Source: Paraspadella gotoi
Taxonomy: Eukaryota > Animalia > Chaetognatha
Assembly (NCBI GenBank): GCA_051294375.1
Contig: CM119271.1
Coordinates: 10,407,427 to 10,471,426, forward strand
Length of the DNA: 64,000 nucleotides
Reading direction: 5' to 3'
Positions 7,601 to 45,319 of the stretch are shown piece after piece. The notes under the pieces are model-generated. The model saw nothing but the letters and a program-made list of their open reading frames with translations. It was not told where the DNA came from and made no database searches. The position numbers and the translations under genes are program-made. Numbering within the stretch: position 1 is the first letter of the stretch; the number at the start of each line of letters is the position of its first letter.

Positions 7601-10600
7601 TAGGAATAAAACGATTTTAAACTTAAATTATTTATTTTATGTTAATTATACACAGCTGAATGATTATTTTACTTTTTATGAATTATAATTTAAATGTAAA
7701 TTTTTAAAAATATTAAATATTTTTATCAATATTACCTCGAAATAAAAAAGATGGGAAATAATCGTATTTTTGAAAGATTTTTCAAATACTATTCTTTTAA
7801 ATTAACAATTATTTTACTATTATATTTTATAAATATGTGTTTAATATTTTTTTATTAGTTAACTGATCCATAATGACATTAATAAGAACAATTGTGATAA
7901 GGCGATAAGTGGGCTGAAGACTGCATTCAGTAACTTCTATGCCCCTCAGCAGCCACAGTCCTGGCTTGGAACCAGGCTTGAGGGTTTTCCACGCCTCCAT
8001 AGTGGTCTACGGTCGTCCTCTTGCTTCCCACAGGGTCATTACCAAGTGAGATTGAACCCGGTACCTAGTGGTCATGAGCTGATGGCTTTACTCAATGAGC
8101 AACCGGGTCACGACTAAAGGTGTTATGATTATTGGCAGGTGGATTTAGGCCATGCCCGACTACACAATTATTAACAATAATTAAAATATTTTGATTAAAA
8201 ATAAAGTGCAAAATACAAAATAATCTTTGAAGAAGTAAAAATAAAATTTAAAAAATAGAAAGTTTGTATCTTTTCCTTTCTTTTCATTTTTATTATTAAT
8301 ATTAGAGTTCAATGAAAATAAAAATCTCTACAACTTTAACTCTAATAAAAATATAATGATGAAAGATGGATAGATGCCTTAACTCACCATAGCCAGTCCA
8401 AAACGGCAAGACAGCTATTTTTTAAATGAATAATTTATATAGTTTGTATTGCATTGTCACCAAAATTGCGAGCGGACGTCGCGATAAATGATTATAGAGA
8501 ATCGATGCTTCCGAGACAACTAATTCTTGTGCTAACTCAGCACTAAAACTCTCGGTTACGTAGATATAGCGCCGAGGAAACTAGGCCACCGGATCTAAGG
8601 CCCAATGACGATTGTAACGTCTCACAGCAGACCTGAGGTCCAGACGATAGAGAAATGCCCAGACTACAAGGTCATGTAGCAAGTATAAAGTAATTGTACT
8701 ACTGACTGTATTAGAAGTCTGGGCAAAATAAATATATTCTGGCAACTTGAGTAAACCTCGGTTATCAAAGAATCCTTTCACCGAACTACAGTCGAGCCTC
8801 AGTCGTCTTCGTTTCCTTACATTGTAAAGTTTCTCTCATTCGAATTTCAAGCCAGTAACGAAAACAATGTTTTTTTTCCCTTTTTAATTGTATTGTTATC
8901 AACTACATTTTTAACCTTCCAATAATATCGTCATATATAAATTCGGCATTAAATATGAAATAAATATTTTTCTAAATTGAAAAATATAGTGAATCTTAAA
9001 GACATAATATCAACTGTGAAGGTTTAAAGGTAACTTTGAGGACACCGATATTACTAACTTATAAAATTAATGACATAATATAGATTATTAAATTATGCTA
9101 AACTCGTTTCTTTTTCCCCCTATCGTTTGAAGTATCTTATTTAAAAAATATGGGTGCATATAATTTTTTATTACCATCATAATTTGTGAGAAGCACAATT
9201 TAATTTATTCCAAAGTTTTACCCAAATTTTTTGCGAGACTGTTTCTCTCCCTCAATTTTATCCCTCCTTTCACTGGATTTGAAAGCCTTTAAATCTTGAA
9301 ATAAAAATTTTTTAGCATAATTTTACTTTCGCAAAGCTGGGTTAGGGGAGGTTTAGGGTTATGGGTGGTTTATGAGTGGTTATGGTTAAGACGGTTTAAG
9401 GTTAAGGTAATTTTTTTAAAAGTAGATTTTTAAGTGGTTTTTCCAAAGGCCAAAACATCAGTTAGGGAAAGTTTTTACCCATAATTTTGTCAAAAGCCAG
9501 CATTTTATAATATAAAGCCTTTTTTAATTGTTATCCTTTGACATACAAAATGTAATTATAAAGCAAAACCAAATAATTAGGTATTAAGATTATAAGTAAC
9601 TGTATTTTGATTAATTACTAAGTGTGCTGGCTCAATAATTGCTTGCTTCTTTTAAAAATTCTTATCTTTTTTCAACCGGAAGTGGTTTGCGCAAAAAGTG
9701 GCGCGGAAAGTCCATATAGCGCATCCGGAGAAATTTTTAATGGTGATATTCTTTTCTCCACCTAATTTGGAATGAGAAACTTTGCGAGAATCAAAAGACT
9801 TTAAAAAAAGTTTGATATTCCTGGGAGATCTAAATTGTTTACCCAAACATGTCAATGTGTCATCTTTGCGAAATTTTACAATTTAAACAAGTGTTTAGGA
9901 TTCTATTTGCATGTTGTTTCAAAAACTGTTATTTCGTTGTAAACACTAAATTTGTATTTATTTGTATACTATAGTATACTACTATATACTAGTTTATGGT
10001 GTATACTAGTGTATACTATATTTTATATATACTTTATAGTGCTTTTATTGTGAGTACTTAATAGCTTCGTATTACCACAATATCAAAAATATTAAAATAA
10101 ATAAATTATCAGGGATGGGTACCAGTTTACGTCGACGGCGCGGAGCAACGCCTCTCCGTCATGTCGATCGGGTTTTTGCTGAAATCTTACGACAGCGACG
10201 CCGTTGTGTGGCGAGGGCCCAAAAAGAACGCTATGGTCAAACAGTTCCTCACGGACGTTACGTGGGGAGACTTGGACTATCTGGTCGTCGACACGCCGCC
10301 CGGGACCTCCGACGAACACATCAGCGTCGTCGAGGCGGTTAAGGTTTGCCTTTTAATAACTAGGCCTATAAAAAGTAATAATTTCTGAATAATACTAAAA
10401 GACAGGTTTTAAAAAACGGTCTTGGTCTCATTTTTAGGATCTCTTCGGCGATTCCAAAGTCGGCGCCGTTCTGGTGACGACGCCCCAGGCGATGGCGGTG
10501 GACGACGTTCGGCGGGAGATCGCCTTTTGCCGCAAGACTCGCCTCTCGATCATCGGCCTCGTCGAAAACATGTCCGGCTTCGTCTGCCCGAACTGCGACG

Positions 10601-10797
10601 ACTGTTCCAACGTTTTTTCCAAAGGAGGCGGACGCCTCTTGGCCGAGCGGACGGGCGTTGGGTTTTTGGGCGAGATCCCCTTGGACCCTCGGGTGGCGGC
10701 CACGATGGACGCCGGGGGGACGCTTCTCGAAGCCGCGGCCGACGACGGACGAGTGGAGGGCATCGTCGAGGGCATCATAGCGTCGGGGAGCGGATGA
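4697..10797 (+). CDS. NUBP2: Cytosolic Fe-S assembly factor NUBP2/Cfd1 (exons 4697-4924, 10113-10343, 10438-10797)
   Basis: [34 protein letters not shown] and [11 protein letters not shown] motifs, with no N-terminal Cys cluster. Phase-0 GT-AG introns; intron 1 is about 5.2 kb. Confidence 0.93.
5042..7518 (-). mobile_element. Non-autonomous DIRS-type (tyrosine-recombinase class) retroelement, gag-only
   Basis: Inverted terminal repeats of about 140 bp (5078-5219 and 7365-7504) with different outer extensions. The internal segment 6526-6613 is the reverse complement of the right end joined to the left end (ICR), sharing AATT at the junction. No RT or recombinase ORF is visible. Confidence 0.85.
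5380..6958 (-). pseudogene. Frameshifted DIRS gag-like ORF with one predicted intron (6756 to 6319)
   Basis: Pro-rich start, then ...[15 protein letters not shown]..., then [31 protein letters not shown], which resembles the C-terminal RR...S..P....LFG motif of DIRS Gag. Frameshifts near 6935 and 5840, and probably one further downstream. Confidence 0.55.
7900..8160 (-). ncRNA. tRNA-derived repeat (family D) with degenerate type-P3 twister-like fold (7914-7982)
   Basis: Minus strand: hairpin 8134-8156, B-box-like GGGTTCAATC, then CUCAAG-CCUGG-UUCCAAGC-CAGG...UGCU-GA-GG...GAA-UGCA-GU-CUUCAG. Confidence 0.45.
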
Positions 10798-43540: not shown

Positions 43541-43760
43541 TTTGCGTCAGTTGGTCGTCGTCGTCGTTCTTGCCAAAAGACTCCTTTTCCTTTCCGTGTC
43601 CCCTTTTTATTTTTATTTTCCCGCCAATTTCTTTATTACGTAAAGCATTTTTAATTTCAGATGCGCGAATTGTAAACGAGAATTTTTATCTTTCTCCGTT
43701 GGCGGGAAGGTAAACGTCGCGCATGACTATCGAGACGCTAGTCTCCGGCGAATCCGAAAC
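43541..43760. promoter_or_regulatory. Probable bidirectional promoter between divergent SERINC and C6orf120
   Basis: Head-to-head ATGs 220 nt apart. Inferred from gene layout only. Confidence 0.5.
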
Positions 43761-45319
43761 ATGAACTCCAAACTGACGAGTTTTCTTTTCCTTTTACTCC
43801 TCTACCTTTTTCCCTTCGTCGATAGCAACAGTCAGTGGGTCTTGGGCGAAAAATATTTGCCGTCCGATGCCTCTCTCTACAGAACGTTTCGATCCAAGGT
43901 AATGTTAATCTGCGCCAACGACATTTAACTATAGTGAACCGTTCCATTGACAATGGCATTGTCAGATTAAAGTAATATGATTTTTGAAACAAAACAAAAA
44001 ATATTTGAAGTGATGTAATATCACTACCCGTTGGATACGACTGTTCCTTTCATCAGCGCCGTAATAGCGCGCTGTGCTAATGCTTCATCTCCGAAACTTA
44101 TATTCCCGGGTTCTAGCCCTAGTCGGAACAGTCCTTGCAACAAGAGTGACGGGCCGGTTAAACCACCGCTAACCACTGCCGGAGTTCCGGAAAGCAAGGC
44201 AACTGACGGAAAAATCTCCCCGACCCACTAAGTGTGGGGGCTCTCCACACTCACAAGAGAGGCATGGCGACCCTCTCTCCTCTCGATCACGTCAGATTCT
44301 CATTCGTTTAACCGTGTTCAAAACCTAACTACCAATTAATTAATTAACCAAGGTCGAAGGCGGCCACTACGTCGTCTTCCAGCTGACGAGCGGCGGGAAC
44401 TTGGAGTTGCTCCTCAACTCGGAGTCGGGCGACGCGGACATATACGTCAGCTCCAAGTCGAAGAGTCCCTCCGCCGACGACTACGAGTTTTCCTCCGTCA
44501 CCTGCGCCTCCGACTCCGTTTTCATTTCCGAAGATCAGGTGGTTTTCTAAATGGGGGGGGCGTTTAATTTGACGTATGTATTATGGGTAGGGGGCGCTAA
44601 AAAAAAATTAAGTTCCACTTTGCAACACTATTTTAGACACCACAGGATTCAAATTACCGGTAATAATCGGAGTCAGGATTTTGATTTATTCGTAAAGGAG
44701 ATTGAATTTATATGTTGACTTAATTAGATTTTATTTTTAAGCGCTTTTCCTATTGGTTAGTCTTGAAAAAGGTTTTTTTTGTGTTTTTTTTACATTAATT
44801 TATATCGGCATGTTTCGATACAATTTATTATCAGACATTTTCGAACAAAATTTCTAATGGCGGGAGTAAATTGGTCACCCGGTATTTTCAATACTGCAAT
44901 ATGCAAATGTATTTTTTGAGTATCTAACCTTTTTCCCCCAGCCCCGCCCCGTCCATATTTCCGTGTTCGGCAGCCCCTACCACCACGAGTCCGCCTTCAC
45001 CCTCAACGCCTACCACATTTCTGCCAAGTCCAGCTACAATCGCATCTTCAACGCTTTCAACGTCGTCACCTACGAGGATCTCGCCAACCGCCACGTCGTT
45101 CTGCGCGACTCCGGCCGCGGTGACAGCGACGACGGCGTCGACGACTCGCGCGGTCGCCGAGATGCCCCGACGGGCTCGTCGGGTGCGGGCGGCGGCGACG
45201 CCGGCTCCGTTTCGAAGGACGGCTGGCTGTCCTGGATCCTCGACGGAGAAGAGGGTTGGGTCGCCGTCTTCACCGTCATTATGGGGGTGTTGAAAGTCGT
45301 TCTGCAGGCGTTGGGCTGA
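43761..45319 (+). CDS. C6orf120: UPF0669 / C6orf120-like protein (exons 43761-43898, 44353-44538, 44942-45319)
   Basis: Signal peptide; LNSESGDADIYVS..P..DDYEFSSVTC..D.V.I; RPVHISVFGSPYHHES; C-terminal hydrophobic helix. Confidence 0.85.
44049..44205 (+). ncRNA. tRNA-derived repeat family C with relic twister-like fold, in C6orf120 intron 1
   Basis: Shares TTCATCAGCG..CC, CTCC.AA and CCGGGTTCTAGCCC with family A. Followed by CCUUGC..GA-CGG-GCCGGU-UAA..GC..CCGGA/UCCGG..GCAAGG, with L4 missing. Confidence 0.45.

Follow-up and report, generated by a model that had tools for sequence, protein, structure and literature searches.

Short dispersed repeats in a stretch of 64,000 nucleotides of the chaetognath Paraspadella gotoi (GenBank assembly GCA_051294375.1, contig CM119271.1, positions 10,407,427 to 10,471,426 of the forward strand; hereafter the window) are, in a reading that we hold with moderate confidence, solo long terminal repeats (LTRs) that derive from non-autonomous, Helenus/TRIMp3-type LTR retrotransposons, which carry a tRNA-like promoter together with a predicted twister ribozyme and would replicate like plant LTR retrozymes. 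An earlier note on the window had described six copies in four families (A1 and A2, B1 and B2, C, D), all with a twister-like fold directly downstream of a head derived from a tRNA, and had proposed them as a new class of mobile ribozyme elements. "New class" goes too far, because elements with a tRNA part in the LTR (Helenus/TRIMp3) and elements with a ribozyme in the LTR (plant retrozymes) have both already been published. In family A the ends are fixed and include a terminal hairpin, the flanks are unrelated, a tRNA-like head is followed by a twister-pattern core, and in one class of contigs a purine tract precedes the element.

The window is gene-dense animal DNA with short AT-rich introns, and the six copies lie in introns or between genes. 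The host's ATP12 is about 70% identical to unnamed metagenome proteins and shares at most 50% with those of named animals.

Ends and variation of family A

A1 occupies positions 36577-36810 (234 bp) of the minus strand, runs from TA to CA in element sense and is likely a solo LTR; its limits come from pile-ups of loose contig ends in four runs and from its alignment with A2. It contains, from its 5' end and on the same strand, a terminal 7-bp hairpin (36789-36808, part of U3 under an LTR model), the 5' arm of a 9-bp inverted repeat (36781-36789), the tRNA-derived head (36706-36777; 7-bp acceptor-like stem, A box, B box and T-arm, located by scan, fold and contig variants), a P5-type twister (36628-36703, core 36636-36693, predicted cut between 36679 and 36678) and the 3' arm of the inverted repeat (36614-36622). 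The predicted fold of A1 shows the terminal hairpin, the twister helices P3, P4 and P5, and a 9-bp helix around the acceptor-like stem, by which the inverted repeat encloses head and twister. A2 (39315-39531, minus strand), 86% identical to A1 when the window is compared with itself, has its hairpin at 39510-39529, its head at about 39427-39498 and its twister core at 39357-39414. The inverted repeats that the earlier note had seen in A1 are confirmed. In A2 the repeat is broken by deletion of the 3' arm, and in the contigs no variant of at least 5% falls in it; this invariance marks it as a trait of the family.

Contigs of four public runs (X1, X5, X8 and X9, the last a presumed RNA run with long contigs) were matched to positions 36380-37010, so that the read-level data concern the ends of family A, through copy 1 alone, and the end classes are those among the matches listed. 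In X1, 10,367 contigs match, nearly all within the element, and loose ends accumulate behind 36810, 36811 and 36812 (141, 34 and 28 contigs) and before 36577, 36576 and 36575 (80, 26 and 32). Flank agreement at these ends is about 0.4, and X5, X8 and X9 have pile-ups at the same positions. Among the listed X1 matches, neither the head nor the predicted cut is the starting point of a major class. Family A is a dispersed element with two fixed ends, which include 33 bp upstream of the head. Copies number in the hundreds or more, with about 200 junction contigs as the firm lower bound; the summed depth in X1, about 1.1-1.4 million against 31-40 on the flanks, is not a copy number.

Sharp ends, a hairpin inside them and unrelated flanks argue that A is not a plain short interspersed element (SINE). 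The earlier note had come to the same view and had named copies that begin at the tRNA head and have A-tails and target site duplications as the sign of a SINE; in the public contigs, the main end classes of family A take in the upstream hairpin, and its report of no poly(A) tail is confirmed. A bipartite SINE, in which a tRNA head is joined to the 5' end of an RTE long interspersed element (LINE), would also bring a head and a twister together, since bipartite RTE SINEs exist (PMC5786205) and twisters occur at RTE 5' ends (PMC8501958; PMC7761336). The RTE-associated variants resemble the present ones as animal retroelement twisters with a long P3 and a short P1 (PMC8501958). They are, however, of type P1 and mark the extreme 5' end of an autonomous LINE whose insertions begin at the cut, whereas here a P5-type twister lies in the middle of a unit of fixed length. 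A copies do not start at the cut, their fixed 5' end takes in about 33 bp upstream of the head, and they have no A-rich or microsatellite tail; for A the contigs contradict a SINE, plain or bipartite, and we regard it as very improbable.

Among 15 variants listed at 5% or more, those in the twister affect the P3 loop (36663, 36664), the P5 pair that lies outermost (36703, chiefly a change to G-U) and a CpG in T2 (36644, 3-7%), and no base of the catalytic core varies at 5% or more. Two common variants of the head turn acceptor pairs into G-U, by which the stem is kept.

In one X1 class, the 28 contigs behind 36812 (agreement 0.6), 12 purines, of which 10 are G, and two further bases stand just before the first base of A in element sense. 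In Helenus the internal region closes with a G-rich tract that stands 0-3 nt ahead of the LTR (PMC10886601, supplement). The junction motif is not found in the 64-kb window and accompanies no copy there. In a separate observation, read in element sense, the purine tract of this class supplies the 3' arm of a hairpin of 5 bp that lies in the putative internal region.

Matches to a 17-mer of A in metagenomes (28 loci) were discarded, all being chance matches of 17-24 nt.

Twister cores and tRNA-like heads

The layout of type P5 was taken from the Rfam consensus (P2', GA, T2, P1, UAA, P2, T1, gap, P4, U-NNN-AR-T1', P4'), and both strands of the window, together with 642 shuffled windows, were scored by log-odds that take pseudoknots and composition into account. 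The five highest scores were 31.9 (E2), 31.6 (A2), 31.3 (A1), 27.1 (B2) and 24.7 (B1); the best score of a shuffled window is 23.4 on average and 30.4 at most, and five hits reach at least 24 against 0.41 per shuffle. E2 belongs to a further family, E, uncited in the earlier note, which comparison of the window with itself reveals at 8360, 20603-20703, 29541 and 37861. The core bases GA, UAA and U-NNN-AR, with P2, P4, T1 and T2, are present with one deviation each in A1, A2 and E2. Moreover both pseudoknots covary: T2 is CGG/CCG in A and UGG/CCA in E, and for T1 both A and B have GC/GC against AC/GU in E. Published twisters, among which a 2-bp P1 is permitted, show the matching order UAA-P2-GC-long P3-P4 (PMC8501958, Table 1). 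The only Rfam twister match in the window is that of Twister-P5 to E2 (20655-20697, minus strand; 25.8 bits, cut-off 37.6). Families A, B and E carry a supported P5-type twister pattern.

The claim of a twister in all four families stands for A and B, that is, for four of the six cited copies, and falls for C and D, which score no better than shuffles. C scores 8.1, a value equalled in 26 of 40 local shuffles, and D 13.2, equalled in 11 of 40. C (44006-44264, plus strand) has a hairpin at 44009-44025, a head at about 44040-44132 with a B box like that of A, and a twister remnant at 44133-44199 that retains the 5' half and has lost the L4 loop. D (7893-8164, minus strand) has a hairpin at 8134-8156, a weak head at about 8045-8111 and, as its sole twister part, a hairpin like P4/L4 at 7960-7976. 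In the best explanation both single copies are decayed relatives with broken ribozymes, the twister of D being unsupported. The P4/L4 hairpin of D also scores as a tRNA T-arm and could equally be a second one; the two hairpin types look alike, so that reading by eye can mislead.

A scan for A box, B box and T-stem finds the heads of A1 and A2 at two deviations (shuffle mean 0.07) and does not find those of B, C and D. The tRNA-derived head that had been ascribed to four families is therefore upheld for A, and in the others partial boxes are seen by eye, as in B1 (12612-12866, minus strand; head at about 12760-12819, twister core 12671-12732). ARAGORN and Rfam call no tRNA in the window or in A1, B1, C and D. 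The position of each copy and hairpin is as the earlier note gave it, with the hairpin of B1 at 12842-12861, and the hairpin upstream of the head is found in A, B1 and D; that of B2 (13498-13692, minus strand; core 13526-13587) is imperfect. C has a 5' hairpin too, which had been overlooked, so terminal hairpins occur in A, B, C and D. An inverted repeat comparable to that of A is not seen in B, C or D. Folding z-scores are -4.1 for A1, -2.7 for B1, -1.5 for C and -1.1 for D.

The families are not altogether independent of one another. The alignment of A1 with C runs from the T-arm into the twister (score 38), and C and D each align with E2; none of 300 shuffles did as well in any of the three cases, which makes a common origin of the modules probable. 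B joins the other families weakly, and MAFFT gave no alignment of B with A and E.

Family E, with the window's best-scoring twister, has no visible tRNA head and an AT-rich tail with a T5 run. A motif of 9 bases near its possible 5' end matches the loop of the A hairpin. Two of its copies, at 8360-8441 and 29500-29625 (plus strand), are decayed, with twister scores not above shuffles; a further copy lies at 37861-37903 (minus strand).

The twister-like fold might also be an inactive or incidental passenger of ordinary Helenus-type solo LTRs copied by normal linear LTR reverse transcription. The broken twisters of C and D, the imperfect ones of B, the failure of Rfam to find those of A and B and the presence of a twister without visible head in E would all suit this explanation. 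Against it speak the intact core bases in the abundant family A, the covariation across A, B and E, and the lack of a terminator for RNA polymerase III (Pol III) after the head, unlike in most Helenus LTRs as read by eye; we consider a passenger improbable.

Probable target duplications and the proposed route of copying

The read-derived ends of A1 are bordered by an exact 4-bp duplication, CAAT at 36573-36576 and again at 36811-36814. In a 4-bp frame, 13 of 20 bases match over the five copies A1, A2, B1, B2 and D, against 6.8 under the null (p = 0.004): 4/4 in A1 and in D (CAAT at 7889-7892 and 8165-8168), 3/4 in B1, 2/4 in B2 and, unshifted, 0/4 in A2. A and B alone give 9 of 16 (p = 0.035). 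The statement that target site duplications (TSDs) are not evident is probably wrong, and short ones are probably present. Beside the A ends the flank consensus is ATAT in three of four runs on the right and ATAY/RYRY in five of nine listed rows on the left, a weak signal in AT-rich DNA and in runs that are not independent.

The termini are TGT...ACA in D, TG...TA in B2, CT...CA in B1, TA...CA in A and TG...CA in C. One Helenus LTR also starts with TA (PMC10886601, supplement). As most contigs and also the junction class carry the terminal TA of A, this dinucleotide probably belongs to the element, a point in favour of the frame of 4 bp. Immediately 3' of the CA that ends C stands TGGCGACCC (44265-44273, plus strand), a suggestive sequence that resembles a primer-binding site (PBS); its TGGCG motif is not among the Helenus PBSs and is unmatched to any tRNA set. 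The pairs B1/B2 (73% identity) and A1/A2 were considered as the two LTRs of single elements and rejected, with neither a PBS nor a polypurine tract (PPT) between them.

[quoted passage not shown] The repeats described here resemble Helenus/TRIMp3 in a likely short LTR composed of leader, tRNA-derived promoter with A and B boxes (supported in A) and tail ending, except in B2, in CA, in a putative G-rich PPT before the LTR start, in likely solo LTRs, in a probable 4-bp TSD and in several families per genome. In most of the Helenus LTRs examined a T run follows the tRNA part; here a twister follows it without a T4 run, and A starts with TA. In plant LTR retrozymes a hammerhead lies in the LTR, and a circular RNA was proposed as the source of cDNA in solo-LTR, full or multimeric form (Cervera et al. 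2016, PMC4918200). They resemble the elements proposed here in the ribozyme in the LTR, the non-autonomous state, the 4-bp TSD, which here is probable, and the dependence on Gypsy elements, which here is inferred; the model for both has cut-to-cut RNA, circles and solo-LTR products. They differ in that their ribozyme is a type III hammerhead without a tRNA-derived promoter, whereas here a twister follows a Pol III head in an animal, and in that circles have been shown for them and are only predicted here.

In the explanation that we favour, solo LTRs with retrozyme-like replication, Pol III would use the head of the upstream LTR as its start in a copy with two LTRs (or a tandem copy) and read through; the sense strands of A1, A2, B1, B2, C and D have no T4 run, which argues for read-through. 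The twister would cut once per LTR and release a cut-to-cut RNA whose hairpin is copied from the downstream LTR. This RNA would be ligated into a circle, with the 9-bp inverted repeat and the helices of the ribozyme holding its ends near each other, and a Gypsy-type reverse transcriptase and integrase would copy the circle and integrate DNA of solo-LTR, full or multimeric form between target duplications of about 4 bp. The LTR nature itself and the double cleavage would belong to the same scheme, which likely holds for B as well. The earlier note had seen a paradox in the copying of DNA upstream of the Pol III start; with an LTR, by the Helenus or the retrozyme route, this DNA is copied from the downstream LTR and the paradox disappears. 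Of the routes it had offered, the retrozyme-like one is favoured by the evidence, its cut-to-cut or circular RNA being predicted.

Rolling-circle or DNA transposition, the other route offered, would make the repeats non-autonomous Helentrons (HINE/DINE-1-like) that move by means of the inverted repeat and the terminal hairpin. On the plus strand A does have a terminal stem-loop that comes after an inverted repeat, like DINE-1 (PMC4067079), and high copy number and AT-rich sites fit as well. Yet HINE subterminal inverted repeats measure 12-15 bp at a distance of 2-4 nt from the 5' end, and the elements are flanked by TT and lack a TSD (PMC4067079), whereas the repeat of A measures 9 bp at 37 nt from the end, A is not flanked by TT, short duplications are probably present, and the combination of repeat and stem-loop occurs in A only. 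We judge this route decidedly improbable.

A retrozyme-like element that depends on a Penelope element or LINE, of the Sm-alpha or non-LTR retrozyme type, would produce ribozyme monomers or circles by Pol III from tandem arrays and insert them by target-primed reverse transcription with TSDs of 6-7 bp. Sm-alpha combines a Pol III promoter with a ribozyme and needs tandem copies (PMC6765202), and animal retrozymes are tied to Penelope elements (bioRxiv 2026.07.22.740005); the frame of 6-7 bp fits, and the tail end of A is less covered. With Sm-alpha and the animal non-LTR retrozymes (PMC6765202, PMC7229834, bioRxiv 2026.07.22.740005) our repeats share a Pol III or tRNA part, a self-cleaving RNA and the form of a short animal repeat. 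Those elements differ in their hammerheads (type I units), tandem arrays, lack of PBS and PPT, longer TSDs and link to Penelope. Here we find dispersed monomers, and Rfam gives no hammerhead match in the window or in A1, B1, C and D. Moreover A has sharp limits on both sides, with a fixed 5' end that lies apart from the cut site, the flanks are unrelated and not head-to-tail, no tandem array occurs in the window, and there are the purine-tract junction and the CA ends. We think this explanation unlikely.

Several observations weigh against solo LTRs with an active twister, among them the 0/4 of A2. The frame of 6-7 bp fits the five copies equally (18 of 30, p = 0.0008), the signal in A and B falls to p = 0.046 once the choice of frame is allowed for, the ends of C and D were picked by eye, and A begins with TA and not with the canonical TG. 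No two-LTR copy (LTR-PBS-internal-PPT-LTR), internal region or helper is seen in the window. Depth is several-fold lower over the tail end of A than over its body, which leaves room for variable tails, and the purine-tract class appears only among the listed X1 matches, with short loose ends (median 18). As for the ribozyme, Rfam at E <= 10 gives no twister in A1, B1, C and D, B1 and B2 have two deviations each, and the A twister has a P1 of 2 bp and, in both window copies, a mismatch in P2. A first descriptor, which counted deviations and allowed G-U, was abandoned as non-discriminating in AT-rich DNA (105 two-deviation hits against 82 in shuffles). Finally, variation is low across the entire element, so that the conserved core is consistent with, and no proof of, selection on the ribozyme.

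Helenus membership is unproven, a two-LTR copy being the missing mark, and the hammerhead that characterizes retrozymes is replaced here by a twister. The TA start of A, the role of the terminal hairpin and the E twister without visible head are unaccounted for by the proposed explanation. In the window, Pfam on 16 of 108 long open reading frames (ORFs) shows no reverse transcriptase, LTR integrase or RepHel, and a motif check of 51 stop-free stretches of at least 150 aa gives no reverse transcriptase motif.

Neighbouring repeats and significance

Both B copies are flanked by two intronless ORFs on the plus strand, 11629-12393 and 14646-15425, which share 70% DNA identity and have weak IS1595/Merlin-type DDE matches below the Pfam cut-off. 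An element at 5042-7517 has 150-bp inverted arms (5068-5219 and 7365-7517, 95%), a 54-bp exact inverted copy (5042-5095 and 6526-6579) and highly charged ORFs without Pfam match. Long inverted repeats like those of miniature inverted-repeat transposable elements lie at 27761-27873 (38-bp perfect arms), 35723-35913 and 40945-41017. Further dispersed repeat pairs are 13771-13994 and 16642-16865, 27428-27650 and 36207-36422, 7516-7589 and 9668-9741, and 4959-5045 and 9739-9827.

The part that appears novel is the twister inside a tRNA-promoter LTR in an animal. Searches of the open-licence literature of PMC and bioRxiv, to which Repbase and Dfam are external and in which part of the Helenus supplement was covered by search terms, gave no case of a twister within an LTR or following a tRNA head; the available text of PMC10886601 does not mention "twister" and has ribozymes only within a reference. 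It is possible, though short of probable, that the repeats represent the first animal and the first twister-driven LTR retrozymes: Pol III-transcribed TRIMs in which the twister would take the place of the terminator and of the R-repeat strand jump, and which would pass through a small RNA circle and leave thousands of solo LTRs, each an active cassette of tRNA promoter and ribozyme.

Solo LTRs of this kind can pass for SINEs, and Rfam misses abundant natural P5 twisters in which P1 is minimal and P3 long. If the proposed explanation is true, it unites tRNA-promoter TRIMs and ribozyme-in-LTR retrozymes, two groups that have been described separately, and LTR retrozymes reach from plants and hammerheads to animals and twisters. 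It would also give the twister, few of whose biological roles are known, a specific task that can be tested, that of setting both RNA ends of a retroelement.

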